Origin: Lentisphaerota bacterium
Lineage (GTDB): Bacteria; Verrucomicrobiota; Lentisphaeria; Victivallales; UBA1829
Assembly (NCBI GenBank): GCA_015061845.1
Contig: SUVT01000002.1
Span: 4,057-68,056, forward strand
Length of the DNA: 64,000 bases
Direction of reading: 5' to 3'
The notes beneath the pieces were generated by a model that was not told where the DNA came from, searched no databases, and was given only the letters and a program-made list of their open reading frames with translations. Numbering within the stretch: position 1 is the stretch's first letter; every line of letters begins with the position of its first letter. Position numbers and translations under genes: made by a program. This document shows positions 25,526 to 64,000 of this stretch, one piece after another.

Positions 25526-25562
25526 AAGGTATGGCACACAGCAATGTACCATACCTTTTTTT
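25526..25562. terminator. bidirectional rho-independent terminator between convergent GT2 gene and CAZyme operon
   Basis: AAGGTATGG-loop-CCATACCTT followed by TTTTTTT. An A-rich tract lies on the other side. Confidence 0.6.
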
Positions 25563-25578: not shown

Positions 25579-26727
25579 TTATTTCCAGACAACACCCTGC
25601 TCTGACGGCAATTTTCCGGTCTTCTGACCTTCCGCAAAAACAGCCTCAATATTGTCCATGAGGTACTGTCCATCCTCTGCCTTGCGGGAGACAGTCTCTT
25701 TCACAACGATCGGCGTGATCGTCTTGCTCATCATTTCGATGCAGTTCGTATGTTCTGCTCCGATGGCAAGCGGACAGGTGAATGCAAAGTTTCCTCTGAT
25801 CTTCTGAATGATATCCATAAACATCTCCGGCTGGGAAAGTTCAGATGCTCCGGAGTGAAGCACTGTACCGTCCGCAGACAGGATCTTCCAATCGCTGGAG
25901 GTCCAGATCGCTCTGCCGTTTTCACATTCCACATCGATCACCGGATTGACCCCTTTGCCGCCCGCATGGGACAGCATCGTAACGATCTTGATCCCGCTGT
26001 CAGTGGTGAAACGGACAGCGCAGGTATCAAAGGTTTCAATATTTTCTCTCGCACGGTAGAGATTTCCCTCCACGGAAACGACATGGGCAGACTTTTCAAA
26101 CCGTTCTCCGGCATAGAAGAGTTCCATGTTCAGGTAGTGAGCAAATGCGTTGTTGATGGGGGAATCGAAAATTGCTGCTCCGTCAGCAGCATACATTTTG
26201 CCTGCCCAGTTGTTCCGGCTGTAGTAGGCATCGCTGCGGGGCCAGATCCCGGTACAGACGATCTGCTTCACTTTACCAAGTTTTCCGCTGACAAGATAGT
26301 GCTTGATAAACTGGACTTCTCTTGCATACATATGCTGGAATCCGATAGCTACGAACTTTCCGTTCGCTTCCTGCTCCGCTTTGATCATGAGGTTCACATC
26401 TTCCACAGAACCGGCAGCAGGTTTTTCCACAAGAACGTTTGCACCGTGCTTCAACGCTTCTACTGTCATTCTGGAGTGAAGCGCGATCCCTGTCGGAATG
26501 CAGACCAAATCCAGTTTTCCGGACTGTTCCGCATACATTGCTTCAGTGGAAGGATAAACCTTGACACCCATTTCTTTCAGTTTCTGCAACTGTTCCGGCA
26601 CTTGTTCCGGGTTGATCACAACCACACAAACCAGTTCAATCACGCCTTTTTTTGCCAGCGGTTCCAGATGAGAAAAATGGACACTGCTGTAACCGGAAAT
26701 TCCGATCAGACCGACTTTTATTGTCAT
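25579..26727 (-). CDS. Gfo/Idh/MocA-family NAD(P)-dependent oxidoreductase
   Basis: Rossmann N-terminus IKVGLIGISGYS and GANVLVEKP motif. Start set at ATG 26727 (GAGGTG RBS) rather than TTG 26739. Confidence 0.85.
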   Translation of the reverse strand: MTIKVGLIGISGYSSVHFSHLEPLAKKGVIELVCVVVINPEQVPEQLQKLKEMGVKVYPSTEAMYAEQSGKLDLVCIPTGIALHSRMTVEALKHGANVLVEKPAAGSVEDVNLMIKAEQEANGKFVAIGFQHMYAREVQFIKHYLVSGKLGKVKQIVCTGIWPRSDAYYSRNNWAGKMYAADGAAIFDSPINNAFAHYLNMELFYAGERFEKSAHVVSVEGNLYRARENIETFDTCAVRFTTDSGIKIVTMLSHAGGKGVNPVIDVECENGRAIWTSSDWKILSADGTVLHSGASELSQPEMFMDIIQKIRGNFAFTCPLAIGAEHTNCIEMMSKTITPIVVKETVSRKAEDGQYLMDNIEAVFAEGQKTGKLPSEQGVVWK

Positions 26728-26735
26728 GTTACACC

Positions 26736-27725
26736 TCAAAAATAGATTATTTTTCCTGTATCAGCAGCTTCCTGCGCTTTCAAACAGGCGTTGGTAAGTT
26801 CAATTGTTTCTTCTGTCGTGACCACTGCCGGCTTTCCGCCGGAAAGTTCGCCCAGAAAATCTGCAAAAATATTCATGCCGGTATCTTCCGGCTCGATCAC
26901 ACGGCTGCCTTCCTTGTCGATCAGATAAATCTTTTCATCCCGGATCTCCAGTACACCTTCGGTTCCAGCCAGACGGATCCGGTCATCGCCCCAGGTGGGA
27001 GCTGACATCGGGCGCAGAAATTCCATTGTGGCATTGACAATGATACCGGATTTCATTTTCAGCTGACAGCTTGCGGCGATTTCCATTTCTCCGTTCCCGA
27101 AATTGTCTTCTGAAGTCTGAAGCGCACTGACAGATTCAAATTTATCTTTTGTGAAGTACATCACCCAATCCAGCGCATGGCTTCCAACCCAGCCGATGGT
27201 TCCGCCATAGGTCGCACGGCGGCTGTAAAACGCCGGACGGGTTGCAAGTTTGTAAGACTTCTGAGTCCGGATCAGTTTGATCTTTCCGATTGCTCCGGCA
27301 TGAACCATCTCAGCCGCCTGATAGAACGGTGTCATATAGCGGATCCCCACCATGGAGATGATCCGGGCTTTGCTGACTTTCAGCGCATCTTTCACCAAAT
27401 CCAGCTGCTCATAAGTCAGCGCAATGGGCTTTTCACAGAAGACATGGATTCCTTTCCGCAAAGCAAAAGCACTCATCTCCGCATGTTTTTCAAAAGGTCC
27501 GTCAACACAAACCACATCAGGCTTTTCTGTCTCAAGCATCTCTTTCCAGTCAGCATAGATTTCCGGCTGAAAACCGAACTCCGCACAACGGTCTTTCAAC
27601 CGGTCTATCGGATCTTCGCAACCGGAAGAAATACAGGTAATATCTGCCATTTTTTTCAGGGCTTCGATATCCATAAAAACATAATTAAAGTGACCGCGGC
27701 TGCCGATCATTGCCAATTTCAGCAT
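26736..27725 (-). CDS. Gfo/Idh/MocA-family NAD(P)-dependent oxidoreductase
   Basis: MLKLAMIGSRGH Rossmann start and GIHVFCEKP motif. 329 aa. Confidence 0.85.
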   Translation of the reverse strand: MLKLAMIGSRGHFNYVFMDIEALKKMADITCISSGCEDPIDRLKDRCAEFGFQPEIYADWKEMLETEKPDVVCVDGPFEKHAEMSAFALRKGIHVFCEKPIALTYEQLDLVKDALKVSKARIISMVGIRYMTPFYQAAEMVHAGAIGKIKLIRTQKSYKLATRPAFYSRRATYGGTIGWVGSHALDWVMYFTKDKFESVSALQTSEDNFGNGEMEIAASCQLKMKSGIIVNATMEFLRPMSAPTWGDDRIRLAGTEGVLEIRDEKIYLIDKEGSRVIEPEDTGMNIFADFLGELSGGKPAVVTTEETIELTNACLKAQEAADTGKIIYF

Positions 27726-27744
27726 TGAAACAACTCCTTCCTTA

Positions 27745-28551
27745 TTACCGTTCTGTTGTGGTTCCGCAGAACCATCTTAAAGTCTCTTCAAGCCACACAG
27801 CATGATCCCGGAATTGCGGATCGGAAAGCCAGCCGTTCTGCAGACAGACACATCCGTCAAGAAACGCATATTTTCCGCGCATGGCAGAAAGAACTTTCAT
27901 CCACTGCAGCTTCCAGAGTTCAAAGTCAATGGGGTGCGCCGCAGATGAAAATTCGCCGTAATTCTGAATATAGATGCCGTGAAGCAGTTTCTTTTTATAA
28001 ATCTCTTTGAACCGATGGATCAGCGAACCGAACTCTGCTTTCCAGAAGTGTTCCGTGGAAACCCACCGCCAGAGAATGATCCCGTCGATCAAATCCAGAT
28101 ACGGGGTCAGATCCAGATGGTTCAAATCGGAGTAGATCACCACATAAATTTCCAATTCCGGATTGGCAGATTTCAGATTATCCCGGATCCCTTTCACCAG
28201 TTCCGGTGTCGTGGGATGTCCGGAGAGCTGAAGAAAATCATCCAGCACGATCCCTTTGATATTCGGATATTTCAAGGACATTTCACTGAGAACTTTTGCG
28301 CCTTCCAGAGCATTTTTTTCGCCGTGGGGCAATCCGCAAAGAACCTGTTTAGAATCTTTCACAAATGCCAGATTTTCTTCCAACCGGTCCAATGAGTGCA
28401 TGCTGTTCATGAAAACAGTATTGTTCATCCCGAAATATTCAGCCGCACTTTCCAGACTGCAAAAACTTCTGTAACTTCCGGTGAATGGCAGGTTCGTTCC
28501 CGCCTGCTCCATGGTGTAACCCCACATCCAAAACTTGTCGCGCATACTCAT
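27745..28551 (-). CDS. hypothetical cytoplasmic protein (TIM-barrel-like?), function unknown
   Basis: 268-aa ORF with no signal peptide. Its ATG overlaps the upstream stop (ATGA at 28548-28551). No family recognised. Confidence 0.55.
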   Translation of the reverse strand: MSMRDKFWMWGYTMEQAGTNLPFTGSYRSFCSLESAAEYFGMNNTVFMNSMHSLDRLEENLAFVKDSKQVLCGLPHGEKNALEGAKVLSEMSLKYPNIKGIVLDDFLQLSGHPTTPELVKGIRDNLKSANPELEIYVVIYSDLNHLDLTPYLDLIDGIILWRWVSTEHFWKAEFGSLIHRFKEIYKKKLLHGIYIQNYGEFSSAAHPIDFELWKLQWMKVLSAMRGKYAFLDGCVCLQNGWLSDPQFRDHAVWLEETLRWFCGTTTER

Positions 28552-31500
28552 TTCAGATTTCTCCTTATTTTTATGGAATCGTTTCCTGGTTCTATTGTAT
28601 CAACAGCCTTTTTCCAATATATTTTTCCATCTTTCACAACAGGCATTTCCATACCGGGTACAGCCGGATAAACCAAGGTCAGGAACTCCACATTTTCCCC
28701 TTTCTGAGAGAAAATCCCCTGGGGCAAAGCAACTTGGAGCTGTCCGTGAAAACGGGTATTGAAAATCTTGCGGGTAACTTGAATCTCCGGTTTTCCGATC
28801 ATGGGGATCAGATGCAGTTCCGTCTGTTCCTGTTTGATCCATTTCCATCCTTTCCCGATCCGTTTGGCATCTGCGACTTCCAGAAGCAAATCTGTTTTTG
28901 CATCGGCTCCGAGATAAATATCACTGCGTTCAGAAAGAGCGATCGCATAAATCTTTGCCTGAGACTGGATCGCGATTTTATGCTCCCCTGCCCCCAGCTC
29001 CACAAAAAACGGTTTGTTCTTCATCCGGAAATGCCGCCACTGCCAGGTGTCCGGACGGGAATAGGGCTGCAAATAAGTCACAGCATATTTCTTACCGTCG
29101 ATCTCCAACGAAACAGGCGCACCGTTCCGGGCGTAAAGGTGAAAATACCACTTTCCTTTCTTCGGAACCTTTACGGTCCATTCTGCTTTGTCTGCTTTCT
29201 CTGAACTCTGATAACAACCATCAAAAAGAGCATCACGAATTGATAGATGATTTTTGGTAAAATTAAAAATTCCCATCCCCTGATCCGCAGTAAAAAGCTG
29301 TTCCACTTTCACATTCCGTCCGGCTTCCACTTTATCATAAACCAGATAATAAGCCGGGATCCCATCCGCAGCTTTCATCATTGTGACGATCCGTTTTCCA
29401 GCCTTGATCCCCGCCCGTCCGCAAGGAATCCCGGAATATCCCGGCGCACCGAAAAAGGAAACTGCAAAGGCTTCCGTAAAATCAACTGCAACAGAAACAG
29501 TATTCCCATCTCTGACAGGCTTTTTCAGCATGGGCTTCGACAATGCGCTTCTGTTGCGCCCTTCCCCGTCAATAATGATCTGACTGTGATATTCACTCAT
29601 GGGAACAGCCTGTCCGGGTTCGGTCAGGAACCGCAAACCGCGGGAAGTCAGAGAGATCGCACCGTATGTCAAATGGGCGTGACCGGAACCTTGTGGAGCC
29701 GTGATCGCCATAACGGAATCTTCCATTTTATCCCCAGTCCGCAGAACAGCATACCCCTGATGCGGGAAATAACCTCGATCCGGCAATCCGCCTTCCCATT
29801 TCTGAGCCTTTCCTTCCGAGGGCTTCCACCAGAGCAAACCAAGAACATCAGTCAACTCCGATGATTTCCGGGGAACACTGTTCCACAATTTATGCAGCGT
29901 CTGATCTTCCGGATAAAGCTCCAGCAATCCCGTCGGCAATCTCAACGCAAGATAATCCGCATCATCAATCGCCGGGGTTTCCGTTCCGCCCTTCATGGAA
30001 GAAACCGCCATCCAGCCGGAGATTTTTTTCAAATTGGAATCCAGCAGAGCCCGAGCCTGATTGTGTTTGTTCAAAGTCACAAGAAACGGAGTCAATTCTC
30101 CAACCGGATGATGGAAATAGGAAAAACCTTCTTCCGCATCACCGTATTCGCCGATCCATTTGTTCAAAGCAAGCAGAGAAAGACGCTCTGCCACAAGGCT
30201 GTAATCGTCAGAGATCCCTTCTTCCCCCCTCATGGCAAATCCCATGGGACCGAGAGATGCAGCAAAATAAACCGCATAATTTCCGCCGCCGGGAGAAGTA
30301 CCGTATATCCCGCAGTGGTGGTTCAAACAGGTATCTTTCTTGGCATCCATGGAAATTTTCAAAAGCACATTCAATGCCTTCAAATCTTTCTTCGGAATCA
30401 GATCATAAACCCAGTCATACGCACAAGCCATGCGGTAATCGCTATGCACCACACCGTGTGCATAACGGGAGATCTCCGCCGCTTTCAGCATGATCTCAAC
30501 TGCACGTTTTCCGTACTTTTCTTCTCCGGTGATCTGACGGGCAAACGCAAGAGACATCATGGCATTCACCCACAATTCTCTGTAATAAAGCTCTGCGAAA
30601 GCCGGAATGGCATAACGTTTCCGCATGGGATCTGTTGCAATCTTTTTCAGAGATGCCTCCACTTTCGGATCTGTCAGATATCCATCGCACTTTTTCAGGA
30701 ACTTGTTCCAATATGTTTTGTAAGGTTCTTTCGCAAAACGGGCACGGATCGCAGGCAGATCTTTTGCTGTGAACAGAATCCGGGGCCGCTCCATTTTCAC
30801 AGGGGGGATCACGATCGGCATGGAAAGGGTCGGTTTGTCTCCGATTCTGCCTTCCATTGTCAGTTTTTCATCAGCGATCACCTGAGTATCCGGTTTCCAC
30901 TGCAATAAAATACCGGAAACAGCAGGACGTACCCAACGGGGGAAATAATCCTGTGCAAACGGTGTATTGGTTACATTAAAATGTTTATTTGTCTTCAAAT
31001 CATAAACCCAGATATCCGCATTTCCGGAACGCTGAGAGGAATAAGCGAGCTTCGTTCCATCCAGGGACCAGCTGACATGTCCGCTCCACACGGGAGTCGA
31101 AAAATGTTTTTTCAAATCCGTTCCATCGGGACGGACACTCATCACCTCGGTGGAACCATCTGCATTAACAACGGTAAATGCGATTCTGTTGTTGCGCCAT
31201 CCCCAGTCCGGCTCATGAATATCTCCGGACAGAGAAAGGATCTTTTTCTGAGAAACGCCCTGTTCATCAGAAATATAAAGATCGAACTTTCCATCCCGGT
31301 TGCTGGTGAAAGAAATGTTTTTGCCATCAGGCGACCATGACGGGGAGAGATGAGTGGCTCTGTTCCAGGAAATATTTCTCATTCCTGTGCCATCATATTT
31401 CATAATAAAAATTTCGCAGTTGTTGTTCAGATCTGTCACAAAAGCGATTTTCTGTCCATCGGGGGACCAGCGGGGCTGATACTTTTCCCGGATGAACCGG

Positions 31501-31826
31501 GTAAGATTATAAATAGACTTTCCGCCGGGCTGGATCACAAAAAAATTGTAGGTGTTGGTAAAAATAAGATTACCCTGAAAAGAGACATCAGGGTAATCAT
31601 ACTGATTGGGCCCGAAACCACGGTATCCGGGCCAGAAATTTTCGGCTTTGAAGTTAGGAGAAATGACTTGCTTCCTCTGCGAGCCATCTTCATTGATCTG
31701 TTCGATAATCCTGACCGGACGCCCGGAAGAATCCCGGGCATCAGTCCCATACACAAGACTTTGTGCTGAACAGAGCGGAATCAATCCGGTCAGTGCCAGC
31801 AGCGCAGAGCAAACTTTTTTATTCAT
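28548..31826 (-). CDS. secreted TolB-type (PD40/WD40-like) beta-propeller fused to a heparinase II/III-like domain (possible polysaccharide lyase)
   Basis: Signal peptide MNKKVCSALLALTGLIPLCSA. PD40 repeats: PRWSPDGQKIAFV, PSWSPDGKNISFTSNRDG, VSWSLDGTKLAYSSQRSGNADIWV. These are followed by an alginate-lyase/DUF4962-like toroid (RPRILFTAKDLPAIRARF...DYRMACAYDWVYD) and a heparinase II/III-like C-terminal region (GSGHAHLTYGAISLTSRG). Start ATG 31826 overlaps the upstream stop (ATGA). Confidence 0.7.
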   Translation of the reverse strand: MNKKVCSALLALTGLIPLCSAQSLVYGTDARDSSGRPVRIIEQINEDGSQRKQVISPNFKAENFWPGYRGFGPNQYDYPDVSFQGNLIFTNTYNFFVIQPGGKSIYNLTRFIREKYQPRWSPDGQKIAFVTDLNNNCEIFIMKYDGTGMRNISWNRATHLSPSWSPDGKNISFTSNRDGKFDLYISDEQGVSQKKILSLSGDIHEPDWGWRNNRIAFTVVNADGSTEVMSVRPDGTDLKKHFSTPVWSGHVSWSLDGTKLAYSSQRSGNADIWVYDLKTNKHFNVTNTPFAQDYFPRWVRPAVSGILLQWKPDTQVIADEKLTMEGRIGDKPTLSMPIVIPPVKMERPRILFTAKDLPAIRARFAKEPYKTYWNKFLKKCDGYLTDPKVEASLKKIATDPMRKRYAIPAFAELYYRELWVNAMMSLAFARQITGEEKYGKRAVEIMLKAAEISRYAHGVVHSDYRMACAYDWVYDLIPKKDLKALNVLLKISMDAKKDTCLNHHCGIYGTSPGGGNYAVYFAASLGPMGFAMRGEEGISDDYSLVAERLSLLALNKWIGEYGDAEEGFSYFHHPVGELTPFLVTLNKHNQARALLDSNLKKISGWMAVSSMKGGTETPAIDDADYLALRLPTGLLELYPEDQTLHKLWNSVPRKSSELTDVLGLLWWKPSEGKAQKWEGGLPDRGYFPHQGYAVLRTGDKMEDSVMAITAPQGSGHAHLTYGAISLTSRGLRFLTEPGQAVPMSEYHSQIIIDGEGRNRSALSKPMLKKPVRDGNTVSVAVDFTEAFAVSFFGAPGYSGIPCGRAGIKAGKRIVTMMKAADGIPAYYLVYDKVEAGRNVKVEQLFTADQGMGIFNFTKNHLSIRDALFDGCYQSSEKADKAEWTVKVPKKGKWYFHLYARNGAPVSLEIDGKKYAVTYLQPYSRPDTWQWRHFRMKNKPFFVELGAGEHKIAIQSQAKIYAIALSERSDIYLGADAKTDLLLEVADAKRIGKGWKWIKQEQTELHLIPMIGKPEIQVTRKIFNTRFHGQLQVALPQGIFSQKGENVEFLTLVYPAVPGMEMPVVKDGKIYWKKAVDTIEPGNDSIKIRRNLK

Positions 31827-34408
31827 TTTCCTGTATTCCAATAAAATTCTTCTGTGAAACGGGTCTCGATATCCTTATGCCACTTTCCGGGATCATTGGG
31901 TTCTTCCGGCATAGCGGTAAAGATAACATATTTTCCTTCCTTACGGAACTCAACCGATTTTCCGTTACAATACACCGCTTTTGCCTTCGGTGCAAATGCT
32001 TTTACAGAAATTTTTCGGGAATATGCGTTTGATCTGCGCTCCAAACGCAAATCCATTGTCAAAGTTTCACCGTCACAGACGACCCAGGACTGGATCGCAA
32101 CACGGGGATAAGTGATCATCTGTCTGTCACCTTGCGCCTCTTTCGCTTCAAAAACAACTTTCGTATGAAGCTTCAAGTCACCGCCGCCCGCAATGAAATA
32201 CTGCAGCTCATCCGGCAATGTTCCCGGAATCTTCCCAACTGCACTCTTCGGTACACGCATCATCTTCAACTGCGGCTGCAATGGTGCTGCAACAGACTTC
32301 GGAGCGGTTCCGACAGCAATGTAATCAACAGCATTTTTCCATTCCAGTGAATGACTGAAACCATACCAGTTGCCAATGCTCTTCCGGATTGGCTGTACCG
32401 CATCAGGAAGGATCACTGCCAGAAAATCACCGGTCTTGCCTTCTGCAATCACCGTCCGCACATGCTGAAACTCTTTGCCGCATTTCACATCCGCAACTTT
32501 CAAAGACACATTCTCCGGCAGAGGATACCAGACCGTTGTCTTCACAGGGGTCGCCGTGAATCCGACACTGTTTTCAGCCGGAACACCAAAGACCGGACGC
32601 TTGTTTCCGGCATAGATCCACGCACCTTTCAGCGTTTGTGCAGCATTCAGCTCCACAATATTTTCTCCGGCTTTCAGCGGAACTTTCTTCGCAATGCAGT
32701 TCCATGTCAAACGGTACGGCAACGGTGTGCTGAACCAGAATTTTCCAACTTCTTTTCCATTCACTTTCGTGAAAAGCTGACTTTTCCCCGCCCCCAGCAT
32801 GTACAAGTCATAAGTTCCAGCACTGCTGACTTTCAACTTGAGACTCTTCTTTTTGAAATCAACAGAAGCTCCAGCACCAACACTGATTTCTGCGGTATCT
32901 TTTGCTGTTTTGATGTTGTTGAACGGCTCCTGCTGAAGCCGGAACTCATAAGTCGCATTCGGTGTCAGTGAACGGATGGAATCGGTAACGATCACATATC
33001 CCGGAACCTGATTTTTTGCATCCGGCGGCATAACAGCAAAAGTCCGTTCTGCCTTGCTGACTTCCGGTTTCTCGATCATGCGGCTGCTGTAACCCACTTT
33101 CCGGTTCCACGCATCGAACGCATCGACCGTATATAGCACCGCAAACTTCCCGATGACAAGACCATTGACCAGCCCTGCCCCACCGTGTTCGCTTGGGGCT
33201 TTGCTGTTGATCGTAACGATATTATGCAGAAGTCCGCTCTTGTGTCCATAGCCCGGATCTGTTGTCCGCATGACACCGCCGTAATGCAGCACGAACGATC
33301 CCACATCCGAATGGGAATGCCCCCGGGAAACGATAGCTTCCGAAGCAAAATGCAACGCCTTTTCGCTCCAGTCGGAGCGGTACAGCAGTAAATTCATTTC
33401 CGGAAAGAAACGGCTCAATGCAAACTTCTCCGGAGTAACTTTTTCCGGTGCTTTGTGATAGATGATCCCGGAAATCGGATCCGGCGCCGGCTCCTGTTCC
33501 GCATTCGCCCAGATAAGAAGCTGATCTATCGCTTTGGATTCCGGAACCAGCCGCTTGATCAAACGCAAAACATACTCTTCCGGATCCTGAATATTACAAT
33601 CTTCCATAGGAATGAAACGCAAAGGCAGCATAGGAGCGGTTTCCAACAGAAGCCACTCCGGTAATTTCGGAAAATTGGAGTCTTTCACCATGGAATATCC
33701 CTTCCGTTCCAGCATGAGTATGGCACTTCCGTTGATCACCATGGGATAATTGAAATATGCCCCGTGTTCCGTAACAGCTCCCCCCGGAACAATGGCATAC
33801 TTCAACTGGGCCTTCATTGCAAGTGCTGCCTTGTCCAATCCGGCTTTATCAAACTCCGGATGACCGCTCAGCACAGCACGATAGCGGATGGAATGGGGCA
33901 TATACATAAAATACCCCCAGTTCCCGAAAATCGAAAACGCCGGATGACGGTTCATTTTCGGATTCGTTTTCAACTCTTTCAGAATCAGATCTTTCAGATA
34001 TTTCTGATTCGACGCACTCAATCCGGCATACGCCCAGTCTAAAATATAAGGAACATGATGTCCCGTTTTGATCAGGTCGATTTTCCTGTTCCGGGCATCT
34101 GTCACCAGCCGTTCCACAGCATTGAGATATTTCATATCCCCGCCCAACTGCCATGCAAGAGCCAATTCACTCAACGCATCCAGTTTGGCATCCGAAAACT
34201 GTGATTTCACGATCTTCGATGGAACAGATTTCATTTGAAGATGCTTATTGCAGCGGGCAATCAGCTGTTTATATACCTTCCCCGGAATCCCTCCGGCTTT
34301 GATTTTTGCCTGTAACGCAGGAACATCCTCTTTGGAAAACAGCAGATGCGGATGCTCCGCTGCCGAAAGTCCGGCAGCGAAAAACAGAAAGAGCAGAAAA
34401 TATCTCAT
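31823..34408 (-). CDS. secreted heparinase II/III-like protein (possible polysaccharide lyase)
   Basis: Signal peptide MRYFLLFLFFAAGLSAAEHP, N-terminal HPHLLFSKEDVPALQAKI toroid-type region, and SRGHSHSDVGSFVLHYGG (heparinase II/III signature). Start ATG 34408 overlaps the upstream stop (ATGA). Confidence 0.7.
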   Translation of the reverse strand: MRYFLLFLFFAAGLSAAEHPHLLFSKEDVPALQAKIKAGGIPGKVYKQLIARCNKHLQMKSVPSKIVKSQFSDAKLDALSELALAWQLGGDMKYLNAVERLVTDARNRKIDLIKTGHHVPYILDWAYAGLSASNQKYLKDLILKELKTNPKMNRHPAFSIFGNWGYFMYMPHSIRYRAVLSGHPEFDKAGLDKAALAMKAQLKYAIVPGGAVTEHGAYFNYPMVINGSAILMLERKGYSMVKDSNFPKLPEWLLLETAPMLPLRFIPMEDCNIQDPEEYVLRLIKRLVPESKAIDQLLIWANAEQEPAPDPISGIIYHKAPEKVTPEKFALSRFFPEMNLLLYRSDWSEKALHFASEAIVSRGHSHSDVGSFVLHYGGVMRTTDPGYGHKSGLLHNIVTINSKAPSEHGGAGLVNGLVIGKFAVLYTVDAFDAWNRKVGYSSRMIEKPEVSKAERTFAVMPPDAKNQVPGYVIVTDSIRSLTPNATYEFRLQQEPFNNIKTAKDTAEISVGAGASVDFKKKSLKLKVSSAGTYDLYMLGAGKSQLFTKVNGKEVGKFWFSTPLPYRLTWNCIAKKVPLKAGENIVELNAAQTLKGAWIYAGNKRPVFGVPAENSVGFTATPVKTTVWYPLPENVSLKVADVKCGKEFQHVRTVIAEGKTGDFLAVILPDAVQPIRKSIGNWYGFSHSLEWKNAVDYIAVGTAPKSVAAPLQPQLKMMRVPKSAVGKIPGTLPDELQYFIAGGGDLKLHTKVVFEAKEAQGDRQMITYPRVAIQSWVVCDGETLTMDLRLERRSNAYSRKISVKAFAPKAKAVYCNGKSVEFRKEGKYVIFTAMPEEPNDPGKWHKDIETRFTEEFYWNTGK

Positions 34409-36201
34409 GAGCCAGCCCGTTCGTGGAATCTGTTTCTGAACTTGAAAAGAATCTGGGAATCTCTCCAATACTTCATCATCAACCGCTGTTTCTCACGCAG
34501 CTGATCCGCAAGTCCCGGACCGAACAGGAATGTGGTTTCATTTTCCGGACTGTTTGCCAGCGGCAGCAGCGGCGCACCGCCATCTTCCAGCAGACGGATC
34601 ATGTTAGTTGAATTGTCATATTCATCACGCATGACAACTTCCAGAATATCAGAGTTGGCAAGGGAAGAATACCCTTCACTCTTTGCACGGTCAAGAATCG
34701 CCTGGAACTGACAACAGTTCCGCAGGTTTTTCAGGACGCAAACCAGAAAGTCAAGACGGCGCAGAGATTCTTTCAGATATTCCTTGTCTGATCCGGCATT
34801 ATTCATTGCTTTCTGATAGGAGGCTCTCGCCTTGGAAAGAGTTGTCAGAATGGAGTTCCAGCAGATCACACTGCGGTCAGCTTCCTCCGGTGTTCTGCCC
34901 TGAAACACATTGCGCAAACCGTGGATATTCAGCAGGTCAAGTTCATAATCCTGACGGTCGAGAGAGTCAAACACATGCTTCTTGTAATAGTATTTTTCCT
35001 CTTCTGTCAGATTTTCCGGAATCGGCACGAACGGACGGACCAGTGTACGGCAGCTCATGGCTCCATACAATGCAACGCTGTAGTAGAAGAGATGCTTCAG
35101 AGAAGTATCGTCGATTCCGCGATAAAGATACTGCCACGCATCAAGCAGATCATTTCCGCCATCCAGTTTCATGGATTCGATCAGATTTTTCAGATAAAGC
35201 ACCCGGTCAGTCATTCCGTTGGTGGATTTGTGATATCTCTTCAGTAATTCATAATAAACGCCGCCCTTCTTGAACAAATGCTGGGTCTGTTCAATATTGA
35301 CAACGATCACATCGGGATTTGCGAGAACAGCATTTTCCAGTTCTTCGATCATGGACAGCGGGTTTTCATATGCGACCGGCTTATCCTGCGGCGGTCGCAC
35401 GAACCAGATATTTTCTTTCCGCATATTTCCTTCGTGAGGAGAGATTTTTCCGCTGAAGCACCAGAACCCCTGCCATGCGTTGTAAGCAAGAGCATCAGCA
35501 GAGGGCATTCCGGATTCCAACGCATTCAGGAAACCGGTCACACGGTCTTCCATGGAACGGTTCTTGCAAGCCTCGGGTCCATTCTTGCCGGGATAGGAAT
35601 TTGAGTTCCAGCAGAAACTTGTTCCGGAATCATTTGTCATAAAGATCATGGTGTCAAGACAGGGCGCGATCTTTCCAAGTTCGCTACTGACTTCACGGTA
35701 AAGATCCAGCACTTCTTCATTGTCAACGCAGGGTGCAAAGTAAGCTCTTCTGCTGCGGAAAGGCATGTCACAGCGGGGACCGCGCCATTCTGGATGTTCC
35801 TGAAAAACAGATTCCGGCAGCCACTGGGGGAATGCTCCGATAATACAGCCTTTCATTCCGATGGATTCCAGAAATGCGGCGCGGCGGGCAAGTTCATCAT
35901 GATTTGCCTTGATCACATCGGCAGGCAGATGCTTTTCCAGTGCTTTCGGACAATGGAACTTGAAAGGATCAGCAAATGCTGCGGTATATTCCGGATAAAA
36001 GTCATATCCCGGCTCATAGGTTCCGTTATTATCCAGCTGCCAGCGGGAACGGTCGAGCATGGCACTGCCAAGATCCATGTGGGTGAAACCGGCTTCTTTC
36101 GCATTGGATGCGACCGTCTTGAACTCTTCAAAGGTGAGACCATTTCCCATGGCGGTATAACCAGTGAAAAGGATCGTTCTTTTTTCGTCGGCAAAACTCA
36201 T
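34405..36201 (-). CDS. hypothetical Cys-rich TIM-barrel-like protein (possible novel glycoside hydrolase), no signal peptide
   Basis: 598-aa ORF from MSFADEK with a strong AGGAGGAAAAA-ATG RBS; the listed 36279 start lacks one. No family recognised. Confidence 0.6.
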   Translation of the reverse strand: MSFADEKRTILFTGYTAMGNGLTFEEFKTVASNAKEAGFTHMDLGSAMLDRSRWQLDNNGTYEPGYDFYPEYTAAFADPFKFHCPKALEKHLPADVIKANHDELARRAAFLESIGMKGCIIGAFPQWLPESVFQEHPEWRGPRCDMPFRSRRAYFAPCVDNEEVLDLYREVSSELGKIAPCLDTMIFMTNDSGTSFCWNSNSYPGKNGPEACKNRSMEDRVTGFLNALESGMPSADALAYNAWQGFWCFSGKISPHEGNMRKENIWFVRPPQDKPVAYENPLSMIEELENAVLANPDVIVVNIEQTQHLFKKGGVYYELLKRYHKSTNGMTDRVLYLKNLIESMKLDGGNDLLDAWQYLYRGIDDTSLKHLFYYSVALYGAMSCRTLVRPFVPIPENLTEEEKYYYKKHVFDSLDRQDYELDLLNIHGLRNVFQGRTPEEADRSVICWNSILTTLSKARASYQKAMNNAGSDKEYLKESLRRLDFLVCVLKNLRNCCQFQAILDRAKSEGYSSLANSDILEVVMRDEYDNSTNMIRLLEDGGAPLLPLANSPENETTFLFGPGLADQLREKQRLMMKYWRDSQILFKFRNRFHERAGS

Positions 36202-36299
36202 TTTTTCCTCCTGTATCTGATTTTTATGATAAACCGATTTATCATTTAATATAACACACCATTTTTCTTTTTCAAGCATGGTGTATTAAATTGTAGAAA

Positions 36300-37061
36300 T
36301 TAATTTGATTTTCCGTTCTTCCACTGCCAGGGAGCACCTTCACGGGTACTTGTGAAAAGATATCTGTCCGGAATAGGTTGAGTTACAATACTTGTTCCAT
36401 CAACAAATTTACTTTTGACAGCTTCAGCATGACCGTCAAGCCAGGCAGTATTCACTACACCGCCATGACGAACCCGGAAATACTGGCTGTAAGGGGAAAT
36501 AACTCTGGAAGAACCGTCCCCCATCAACAGAGAACCGGCAGCACTCGTCACAGAATTGAATTTTCTGGGATGAAGTTCTCCATAAGAAGTTCCGTCATGT
36601 TTTGTCCCTTGAGGAACAAGCATAATATTCATTGCATAGGTGTGAGTCAACGCAATGGTGGAAGAGTGACTGAACCAGAGTTTCTGATTGCTTGTCGCTG
36701 AAACATAACCATAATCGGTAAACGGCGCGTTCTCTCCGCGGTTACAATAGAGGACATGCTTTCTTGCAGTAAGAGATGCCAGCGGCGTTTTTGTATAGTT
36801 CACGATCTGAACGAAAGCAAACATTCCGGTTCCACTGCTACCTGCATCTCTGAAATCAAGCGGCATAATATAATCATCATTGTCGTTTCCGTAAAAGTTG
36901 AAAACTGCAGCGCATTGTTTCAGATTATTAAGACACCCCGACCGCTGTCCACTCTTCCTTGCATTATTCAATGCCGGCAAAAGCAAGCCTGCCAGAATCG
37001 CAATAATCGCAATCACAACCAAAAGTTCAATCAAAGTAAATTCTTTCTTACTGTTTCTCAT
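36300..37061 (-). CDS. prepilin-type N-terminal cleavage/methylation-domain protein with C-terminal H-X9-DG motif (DUF1559-like)
   Basis: [36 protein letters not shown]-terminus. C-terminal [14 protein letters not shown] reads as H-X9-DG. Confidence 0.85.
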
Positions 37062-37107
37062 TCAAACCTCTGCTTTCTGATAAACCGTTTTATCTCTGAC
37101 ATTAATC

Positions 37108-37136
37108 ATTATAACAGCTTAATTTTAATTTGTCAA
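37108..37136 (-). promoter_or_regulatory. perfect-consensus sigma70 promoter (TTGACA-17-TATAAT) of the 25579-37061 operon
   Basis: The minus strand reads CCTCTTGACA-aattaaaattaagctgt-TATAAT-G, with the -10 element about 47 nt upstream of the ATG at 37061. Confidence 0.55.
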
Positions 37137-37363
37137 GAGGTAAAAATCATTTTCTTAAAGTTTTTTTGTTTTTTTTCAGGCAATAACCAGTTTATTTTTT
37201 ATACAATATCTGATATTTTTCGGACAGTTTCTCTGTTTTTATGAAAAAAAAGGTTTTTTTTTACGAAAAAATATAGTAGAAATTCAATCTTCCGTTTGCG
37301 AAATCAGGAAAAGAGTGTAAATTACATGAAGGAAAAAATTAAGTTACAACGGAGAAATGTTCA

Positions 37364-55966: not shown

Positions 55967-56695
55967 ATGAAGATTATGCGTCGGAAGTTCACCTTGATCG
56001 AATTGCTCGTAGTGATTGCAATTATCGCCATCCTTGCAGGAATGCTTTTGCCAGCATTAAACAATGCCAGAGAGAGCGCAAGAGTTTCCAAGTGTACCAA
56101 CAATCACAAGCAGATCGGCACCTATGCAATGATGTATGCCGGTGATTGCGGAGGCTGGGGATTACCGTTACTCTCTACAACTTCGCCAGGGATAAACATC
56201 AATTATTTCTATCCCGGAGTTCAGTTGTATGGTATTATCAAGTATGATCTTATGAAACCTCAACTGGTTGCTGATCTGTTTTGCTGTCCTTCCGCAACGG
56301 ATCCGAATTCAAAATACGTATATGCTGAATCTAACGGTTCCAAAATCAAAATTTATGATATGATCGTAGAAAATAACTACCGGAGCTCCTATCGTTCCGT
56401 TCCTCTGCTTGTCCGTAATTTTAACTACGGTGGAGCAAAGACTAACTCCGTCGGAGCACAAATGGTGCTTTTCCACAAAATAACGACCTCAAATGATGGA
56501 AAAGTTCTTTCTCCCAGCAAGACTGCGTATGTTGCAGATTGTCCGTTCGACCAGGCATGGTTCCACAAAGACCGTCTGAATGTTCTCTACTGTGATGGTT
56601 CTGCCGCAGTGAAAACCAAAAATTCCATTACTGGAGTCACCTGGCCCGTAAGCGGTAGTGCCTGGACATTCAATATGAGCAAACTTGATCGATAA
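55967..56695 (+). CDS. prepilin-type N-terminal cleavage/methylation-domain protein with H-X9-DG motif (DUF1559-like)
   Basis: [36 protein letters not shown]-terminus. C-terminal [12 protein letters not shown] reads as H-X9-DG. Confidence 0.85.
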
Positions 56696-63423: not shown

Positions 63424-64000
63424 ATGAAGGAGAGAATGAGCTCGTCATTTAAGGGACATTCATCCCTGCAGGCAGGGATGAAGCACGCGTGCTTCACGCT
63501 GATTGAACTGCTTGTTGTCATTGCAATCATTGCAATTCTTGCCGGAATGCTTCTGCCTGCGTTGAATAATGCAAGAAGCACCGCAATCACAAAAAATTGC
63601 ACAAGCAATCAGAAAAATGTCGGACTCTATGTTAATATGTACACGACCGACAACAATGGATGGTTGTGTCCGGCGAAAGAAAGCAATGCAAAAGTCAATG
63701 GAAGTACGGTTGTAGACTACTGGTGGTCAATGCGTCTTCAGGATAACGGTTACAGTTCAACCGCAAATCGAACTACGGTTGCGAATGAGTTCCGTTGTCC
63801 TCATGGTGAAATGTCTGGCAGACACTATGGTTTGAGAACCTGCGGACAGGTTACTGTTTCTATAAATTTCAACCGGGGACCGTTTTATATCACAACCACC
63901 GGTGCAATGAAATCCTGGAAAAGTCATTCGGAAATGATTATGATCGGAGATTCCATGTGGAACAGTGCAAATCCGCGACTGAACCACTCACAGCACGGAT
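63424..64000 (+). CDS. prepilin-type N-terminal cleavage/methylation-domain protein (DUF1559-like), 3' end cut by window
   Basis: My own translation, since an open-ended ORF is not in the track: [65 protein letters not shown]... There is no stop up to nt 64000. AGGAGA RBS. The start may instead be the internal MKHAC. Confidence 0.8.

Follow-up and report, generated by a model that had tools for sequence, protein, structure and literature searches.

Bacteria of the PVC group, which comprises Planctomycetota, Verrucomicrobiota, Lentisphaerota and Kiritimatiellota, are major degraders of polysaccharides in the gut and in the ocean, and DUF1559 is among the largest protein families of these phyla. 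To our knowledge, the SusC/SusD system, which accounts for the uptake of glycans by Bacteroidota, is absent from PVC bacteria. Dextran-binding pili-like fibres have been seen in Planctomycetes (PMC5394234), and, according to a 2025 review, the players by which Planctomycetes take up macromolecules have yet to be identified (PMC12673574). In the literature that we searched, no function has been described for DUF1559, and no paper ties the family to glycan loci. Here, we analyze a locus of a Lentisphaerota bacterium in which a gene for a pilin-like protein carrying an H-X9-DG motif is followed by six genes for enzyme-like proteins. The window, that is, the whole stretch of 64,000 nucleotides (nt) that was analyzed, corresponds to positions 4057-68056 of contig C59 of the genome under study, denoted G000 (3.21 Mb, 169 contigs, 82.7% complete), and coordinates given without a contig name are those of the window. 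The locus was compared with its counterparts in G127 and G097, two genomes of the same genus (the locus of G127 is denoted L132), in G135, which belongs to the same family, and in the loci L001/L002 and L102 from metagenomic relatives.

This locus resembles the polysaccharide utilization loci (PULs) of Bacteroidota in that it is a cluster, predicted to be substrate-induced, that would combine enzymes exported to cut the glycan, glycosidases acting downstream and a regulator of its own, with a non-enzymatic envelope protein encoded alongside. Unlike these PULs, it shows no SusC/SusD or transporter match among its seven proteins, and its envelope protein is pilin-like. We read the locus, with a probability of about 0.6, as a LacI-repressed catabolic operon for a uronate-containing glycan, in which the pilin would be a locus-specific envelope component. 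The enzyme part is an ordinary type of repressor-controlled glycan operon built from new families, and the pilin is the interesting part; regulation, orthology and genome-wide statistics, all drawn from sequence comparison, firmly place the pilin gene in the predicted operon. The lyase relationships, the folds of two further enzymes, the operator, the synteny in six genomes, the genome-wide pattern and the divergence of the pilin are new findings of this work.

Regulation and conservation of the locus

The minus strand between 25579 and 37061 is filled by seven open reading frames: the pilin gene, the genes P2 to P5, numbered by their position after it, and two oxidoreductase genes, which stand last. 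In the following list, which runs from upstream to downstream, signal peptides were judged by inspecting N-termini, and AlphaFold2 was used for the structure prediction of P2 and P5.

37108-37136, minus strand: promoter P1, TTGACA, 17 nt, TG-extended TATAAT, matching the consensus at 12 of 12 positions
37079-37094: putative operator O1, GATAAA-ACGG-TTTATC (minus strand), located after the -10 element and before the start codon of the pilin gene
36300-37061, minus strand: pilin-like H-X9-DG protein, 253 aa, matching N_methyl, TIGR02532 and TIGR04294
36248-36275, minus strand: internal promoter-like site, TTGAAA, 16 nt, TG-extended TATATT, matching at 10 of 12 positions
36228-36243: putative operator O2, GATAAA-TCGG-TTTATC, with the 8-bp arms ATGATAAA / TTTATCAT, 26 nt before the P2 start
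34405-36201, minus strand: P2, 598 aa, without signal peptide, TIM-barrel glycoside-hydrolase-like with a C-terminal helical bundle (AlphaFold2)
31823-34408, minus strand: P3, 861 aa, with signal peptide, candidate lyase distantly resembling PL35 (heparinase II/III-type) enzymes (profile match)
28548-31826, minus strand: P4, 1092 aa, with signal peptide, PD40 beta-propeller and PL15/PL35-like lyase module (Pfam, profile)
27745-28551, minus strand: P5, 268 aa, without signal peptide, small (beta/alpha)8-barrel glycosidase-like protein (AlphaFold2, predicted local distance difference test (pLDDT) 90.0)
26736-27725, minus strand: Gfo/Idh/MocA oxidoreductase 1, 329 aa (Pfam E 1.6e-17 and 8.2e-17)
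25579-26727, minus strand: Gfo/Idh/MocA oxidoreductase 2, 382 aa, start ATG at 26727 (Pfam E 2.7e-15)
25526-25557: bidirectional intrinsic terminator, 14-bp stem, preceded by an A-run and followed by a T-run

The pilin gene and the enzyme genes are linked by a palindrome, GATAAA-N4-TTTATC, which has only two copies in the 3.2-Mb genome, both of them in this locus (the expectation by chance in the window is 0.01). O2 sits just beyond the internal promoter-like site and is kept in G127 and G097. In L001 and L102, the same palindrome is found 20-40 nt ahead of the start codon of the cluster's LacI gene; in G135, the variant GATGAAACGGTTAATC stands between a perfect consensus promoter and LacI; and in G097, where LacI is directly upstream of the pilin gene, both operators are present, one of them between LacI and the pilin gene. 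Because the palindrome or a variant of it adjoins a cluster LacI in four related genomes, it is read as a putative LacI operator. In G000 and G127, the LacI gene no longer adjoins the cluster. The G000 orthologue is located on a 4.9-kb contig (C136:1976-3031), beside the 105-aa gene that closes the L001 cluster; its product is 60-72% identical to the cluster LacI proteins (72% to that of G097), the next best LacI of G000 reaching about 30%, and its helix-turn-helix is nearly the same as that of the G097 protein. We read GATAAA-N4-TTTATC as the putative operator of this C136 LacI-family repressor and, with O1 placed before the pilin gene and O2 before the enzyme genes, predict that the pilin and the enzymes are switched on together. 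An interpretation of the palindromes as RNA hairpins was set aside, since their stems would amount to 6-8 A/U-rich pairs and other genomes retain the site ahead of LacI genes. Repression by LacI/GalR-type proteins through two operators is known from the lac and gal operons of Escherichia coli. As in these operons, a palindrome with a central CG closely follows the promoter, and another copy lies about 850 bp away within the unit; unlike in lac and gal, the repressor gene is unlinked in G000, the second operator follows a promoter-like site of its own, and the regulation is predicted from sequence.

A preliminary description of this DNA had listed seven minus-strand genes chained by three ATGA overlaps, a perfect consensus promoter at 37108-37136 and a bidirectional terminator that closes the operon, and all of these were recovered here: the genes lie at the coordinates given, the overlaps (34405-34408, 31823-31826 and 28548-28551) are exact, the promoter has a TG-extended -10 element and is kept in the same-genus G127, and the terminator has the 14-bp stem listed above. 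The other junctions measure 19 nt (P5 and oxidoreductase 1), 8 nt (the two oxidoreductases) and 98 nt (pilin gene and P2). The single unit that had been proposed fits the tight packing from promoter to terminator, but a second promoter-like site, the same in G127 and still recognizable in G097, lies with O2 inside the 98-nt gap before P2, so that the unit may consist of two co-regulated transcripts rather than one. In our interpretation, the enzyme genes form one predicted regulon with the pilin gene, expressed from one or two promoters. The flanks have no link to glycans, with fmt, RNase G and an ABC exporter encoded on one side and GT2 and radical-SAM genes on the other.

Six genomes (G000, G127, G097, G135, L001/L002 and L102) have the genes in the order pilin-P2-P3-P4-P5, while the flanks change. 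The oxidoreductase genes are present in G000 and G097 (the G127 contig ends inside P5), and in the three other genomes P5 is followed by a gene for a 729-aa TIM-barrel-like protein, the L102 copy being partial at a contig end; judged by this synteny, the oxidoreductases are accessory to a pilin-P2-P3-P4-P5 core. The idea of a complete pathway for a uronate-containing glycan consequently survives in part: a catabolic unit with exported lyase-like and signal-less enzymes remains the reading, but the oxidoreductases are limited to the genus and replaced elsewhere. The first position of the pilin gene was likewise correctly described for G000, but it is local and derived, as LacI comes first in four of the six genomes. 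The protein encoded behind P5 in these three genomes belongs to a signal-less family of 726-729 aa that is weakly similar to P2 (the partial L102 copy shares 26% identity with P2 over 89 residues); members are encoded at L001:18497-20686 and, elsewhere in G000, at C102:32701-34911 and C94:6786-8705.

Enzymes of the locus

P3 and P4 are assigned as lyase candidates because their profiles match the solved structures of PL35 and PL15 enzymes and because their catalytic residues are conserved. A profile of five P3 orthologues matches the PL35 enzyme GAGase II (8KHV) with E 3.5e-13 over residues 19-389. The catalytic residues of PL35 enzymes are Asn192, Tyr246 and His401, with His403 and Asp405 as Mn ligands (PMC12088678); N163, Y218 and H364 of P3 align with the three catalytic residues of GAGase II, and H366 and D368 with its two Mn ligands. 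For P4, the profile of the C-terminal part (about 750 residues) matches the PL15 oligoalginate lyase Atu3025 (3a0o) with E 7.5e-8, N516 being found at the position of His311 and Y570 at that of Tyr365, with H716 and H718 retained. The residues at the catalytic positions of both proteins are invariant across five orthologues. With 21% identity, P3 and P4 are distantly related paralogues. The N-terminal part of P4 is a PD40/TolB propeller (PD40 E 6.5e-24, with TolB structures also matched), which agrees with the TolB-propeller-lyase fusion noted earlier; the description of both proteins as heparinase II/III-like is retained in a weaker form, as neither reaches the Pfam threshold but the PL35/PL15 structure profiles match and the catalytic residues are kept. 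At the positions aligned with GAGase II and Atu3025 (3A0O), P3 and P4 keep an Asn neutralizer, the Tyr and the beta-sandwich His-x-His. Unlike these enzymes, to which their sequence identity is very low, P3 has about 450 additional C-terminal residues, and P4 has the N-terminal PD40 propeller and a Thr in place of the metal-binding Asp. An Asn instead of a His neutralizer is the glycosaminoglycan-lyase rather than the alginate-lyase state (PMC12088678). In P3 and P4, this residue appears too thin a basis for naming the substrate, and glycosaminoglycan, alginate and ulvan are not separable by it.

The signal-less proteins P2 and P5, earlier listed as unknowns, are TIM-barrel glycosidase-like proteins according to their structural models. 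The P2 start (ATG at 36201) has AGGAGG ahead of it, and the P2 model reaches a pLDDT of 90.4. Its best fold in the PDB is GH138 BT0997 (E 1e-8, template modelling (TM) score 0.47-0.50, 9% identity), followed by GH20, GH36 and GH89, and the P2 sequence gave no match in Pfam, NCBIfam or the PDB. BT0997 (6HZE) is an alpha-galacturonidase that takes part in the degradation of rhamnogalacturonan II; it has, like P2, a TIM barrel and a helical domain, and it acts on a uronic acid, as is proposed for the operon of P2. Unlike BT0997, P2 is devoid of a signal peptide and of a Pfam family. The characterization of P2 as Cys-rich was overstated, its Cys content being 2.2% against a genome mean of 1.66%. 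For P5, the best folds are Cwp19, GH18 and the catalytic barrels of GH2 and GH10, with TM scores of 0.5-0.65. The P2 family is small and unnamed (48 clusters, almost all from Lentisphaeria), and P2 was found in 13 of the 151 genomes that represent the order; the remoter of its homologues (37-40% identity) have no adjoining lyase or pilin genes. The P5 family comprises 25 clusters, of which all named ones are from Lentisphaeria or Victivallales. If the assignments hold, P2, P3, P4 and P5 represent four unnamed families that may be new CAZy families. An attempt to derive the substrate from the neighbours of distant P2 and P5 homologues was abandoned, as nothing consistent emerged: a Clostridia P2 homologue adjoins a GH78 rhamnosidase gene, and P5 homologues adjoin GH123 and DUF4838 genes.

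The Pfam matches of both terminal proteins confirm the two Gfo/Idh/MocA oxidoreductases at the end of the operon; for the second, the gene model together with a GAGG site set the start. Pfam and NCBIfam scans of the seven proteins gave no match to TonB-dependent receptor, SusD or transporter families, in line with the earlier statement that no SusC/SusD, ABC or phosphotransferase system (PTS) importer is encoded here.

The pilin-like protein: family, divergence and possible roles

The pilin-like protein has the leader MRNSKKE, followed by the FTLIELLVV helix with Glu+5, and its residue -1 is Glu. It scores 22.0 bits against TIGR02532 (cut-off 16.3), and its C-terminal H-X9-DG motif is exact (TIGR04294, 20.5 bits, cut-off 19); PF07596 (DUF1559) was not matched at E 0.01. 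The designation as a DUF1559-type prepilin is thus supported by the prepilin N-terminus and the H-X9-DG motif but not by PF07596, which 58 of 81 paralogues match, and sequence comparison indicates that the protein is a divergent member of the DUF1559 expansion of this genome. Its orthologues in five genomes, all encoded beside the same enzymes, are 66.5, 62, 51, 49 and 42% identical to it, and its identity to paralogues of its own genome is at most 35%; by this comparison, it is a true, locus-specific orthologue. The short basic leader, the FTLIE... helix with Glu+5, two conserved Cys residues and the C-terminal H-X9-DG motif are the features that relate it to type IV pilins, type II pseudopilins and the DUF1559/H-X9-DG family of PVC bacteria. 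Unlike pilins, the protein has no Gly at -1, its globular domain is unlike solved pilins, and it belongs to a set of about 94 paralogues in a 3.2-Mb genome that are found in sugar-regulated enzyme operons and not in pilus operons.

Genome-wide, 94 prepilin-type genes make up 3.7% of the gene calls of G000, about 90 of them with the usual core, and G127 has 115. All of the 81 full-length paralogues match N_methyl, 58 match PF07596 (E 0.001) and 11 match TIGR04294; the N-terminal 25 residues, including Glu+5 and the entire pilin helix, are invariant across these 81 proteins. At position -1, Gly is found in 5 of 90 paralogues, Ser in 18, Cys in 12 and Lys in 9, Arg and Asn being also frequent. 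The gene caller was crude, and a few genes were mis-called (e.g. an ABC transporter near 40 kb), an error that the following neighbour counts share. A downstream gene on the same strand follows 88 of 90 pilin genes at a median gap of 25 nt, against a background adjacency of 79%. The commonest domains of the downstream neighbours are DUF4838 (14), GH123_N (8), Laminin_G_3 (6), CBM9 (4) and CBM4_9 (3), and many neighbours are without a Pfam domain. Viewed from the enzyme side, a pilin gene immediately precedes 16 of 36 DUF4838 genes, where 3.7% would be expected (binomial p 4e-14), and 30 of 36 occur together with a pilin gene in a same-strand run of no more than five genes. These counts bear out the suggested genome-wide enrichment of DUF1559-like genes beside genes for carbohydrate-active enzymes. 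A pilin-first layout as a rule of the genome does not hold: an upstream same-strand gene lies within 150 nt of 58 of 92 pilin genes, so that most pilin genes do not come first, and 22 of 67 upstream neighbours encode GntR, LacI or AraC regulators. A separate sub-family of about 300 aa has another conserved stretch after the FTLIELLV core, e.g. SVTCQIGVLPLYCLKKIHKNCTSLRPSGRTSR, in place of the usual one; its sites include C18:12659, C63:53664, C76:4077, C148:5028 and C158:14955 of G000.

G000 also encodes machinery to which such subunits could belong. Contig C129 carries a type II secretion operon (GspD-E-F) with four short pseudopilins, and contig C163 carries two PilB-like genes, one PilT-like gene (372 aa) and one PilC-like gene. 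Also encoded are a Tad-type ATPase and one prepilin peptidase (Peptidase_A24, C141); the T2SSE-family ATPases number five in all, including the PilT-like one, and there are eight secretin-domain matches.

Between G000 and G127, the pilin of the operon is 66.5% identical, P2 being 98.8% and P3 95.7% identical. At the DNA level, P2, P3, P5 and the C-terminal portion of P4 are 93-99% identical, whereas identity drops to 55-79% in the pilin gene (36295-37190), with a boundary exactly at the pilin stop codon, and to 74-85% in the propeller part of P4 (29705-31944, compared with L132). When 48 pilin clusters, each with at least two syntenic neighbours, were compared between the two genomes, 7 of 48 pilins and 2 of 146 neighbours trailed the remainder of their cluster by 20 percentage points or more (Fisher p 9e-4). 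Patchy replacement of this type is a pattern known for exposed pilins, and by analogy allele replacement in a subset of pilins suggests surface exposure. Four pilin-like genes are arranged in tandem at C17:11908-15156 of G000, and five on C112 of G127; two of the four C17 genes are strongly divergent from their G127 counterparts (58% and 75%, with neighbours at 97%).

The mechanism that we infer would operate in a Lentisphaeria host of the gut or rumen, in which the operon would serve the LacI-repressed catabolism of a uronic-acid glycan. LacI, its gene having moved to C136, would bind the 16-bp GATAAA-N4-TTTATC, and the same sugar signal would derepress the pilin and the enzymes. The Sec-exported P3 (PL35-like) and P4 (PD40-PL15-like) would cut the polymer by beta-elimination outside the cytoplasm, the fragments would be finished by the signal-less P2, with its GH138-like fold, and P5, and the Gfo/Idh/MocA pair would act on the products in this genus only. 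The pilin is most likely an envelope or surface subunit fed into one shared type IV filament machine, and it would serve the glycan of its locus, either in capture and import or by helping to export P3 and P4.

Several results weigh against this reading. With respect to regulation, the surroundings of the C136 LacI gene yielded no operator. With respect to the enzymes, P3 has no Pfam match and P4 reaches only 17.1 bits against Hepar_II_III_C, for which the threshold is 24; T720 of P4 stands where P3 has the metal-binding Asp, most P4 orthologues having Glu there; the P3 family has 12 clusters, and the P3 and P4 families are very small, unnamed and almost all from Lentisphaeria; and the GH138-like fold, the closest for the P2 model, is a weak match (TM about 0.5). 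The operon encodes no importer that could bring the fragments to the signal-less enzymes. With respect to the pilin, Glu takes the place of the Gly that the prepilin cleavage-site rule calls for at -1, which makes cleavage by prepilin peptidase and assembly into a fibre uncertain; a profile of the 81 paralogues matched only the N-terminal helix in the PDB and no solved pilin in the globular part; and the idea that pilins evolve faster in general was discarded, since pilins had a median identity to G127 of 93.9% and their neighbours one of 94.7% (Wilcoxon p 0.057).

Within this framework, it is possible that H-X9-DG/DUF1559 pilins are operon-private, sugar-induced subunits of a shared type IV machine, each capturing its own glycan and importing it through retraction. 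This proposal is tentative, and equally speculative is its extension to about 100 glycan loci per genome, with leaders cut in the absence of Gly and a subset of the subunits swapped as surface alleles. The exported enzymes suggest a different role, that of a secretion adaptor: the pilin would be a pseudopilin variant in the C129 type II machine and would push P3 and P4 across the outer membrane. Both proteins have Sec signal peptides and need an outer-membrane route, the GspD-E-F operon with its short pseudopilins is complete, the 81 paralogues all match the GspG N-terminal model, and the pilin and the P4 propeller, which differ more between G000 and G127 than any other stretch of the locus, could have co-adapted; the nearest model is the pullulanase of Klebsiella, encoded beside the pul secreton. 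We nevertheless regard this role as doubtful, because the GspG match is limited to the N-terminal helix, P2, encoded directly behind the pilin, has no signal peptide, and the other six divergent-pilin clusters do not have a consistently divergent exported neighbour. We also know of no type II system with about 100 alternative major pseudopilins.

The missing Gly can also be taken to mean that most paralogues are never processed or polymerized, in which case the pilin would be an uncleaved, bitopic inner-membrane protein whose periplasmic domain binds oligosaccharides of the locus and, in the manner of a tethered scaffold or solute-binding protein, passes them to a shared inner-membrane transporter. 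Apart from the Glu at -1 here and the rarity of Gly among the 90 paralogues, this would fit the Pfam name of the family, SBP_bac_10, and the fact that the operon has no transporter or binding protein of its own and yet its signal-less enzymes need imported fragments. However, 25 invariant N-terminal residues exceed the need of a plain anchor and fit filament packing, allele replacement in a subset of pilins suggests selection from outside, and dextran-binding pili-like fibres occur in related Planctomycetes (PMC5394234), all of which makes an anchor improbable. That the pilin is unrelated to glycans, for instance as part of an adhesion or motility structure, is very improbable. Its adjacency to enzymes would then be a by-product of an abundant family in an operon-packed genome, and pilin-like genes are indeed 3.7% of the genes, with carbohydrate-enzyme genes being very common; but the pilin gene and the enzymes have a genome-unique operator in common, in six genomes the pilin orthologue accompanies these four enzymes although the flanks vary, the downstream adjacency and the DUF4838 association exceed expectation (88/90 against 79%, and 16/36 against 3.7%), and sugar-type regulators are found directly upstream in 22 of 67 cases.

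If the proposal of glycan capture and import by a shared fibre is true, private pilins would be the missing players behind the polysaccharide-binding fibres and the SusC/SusD-free uptake of PVC bacteria. The locus offers a compact test case, with one pilin gene, one operator type, one candidate repressor and two candidate lyases, and its five orthologous clusters are natural variants in which the pilin alleles differ and the repressor gene is linked or unlinked.

Similar cassettes in the window and in a relative

The arrangement of a pilin gene followed by enzyme genes is repeated in the window at 55967, as had been noticed, where the pilin gene is accompanied by genes for a 317-aa unknown protein, a 1159-aa GH42-like protein and a CBM9-like protein. 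At 63424, where a further repeat had been suspected, the pilin gene is present, but the contig stops about 200 nt beyond it. In L001, a second cassette (L001:5943-7745, minus strand), divergent to the LacI-led cluster, encodes a GntR-type regulator, a pilin-like protein and a 1548-aa GH42-like protein, that is, the same layout with another class of regulator.

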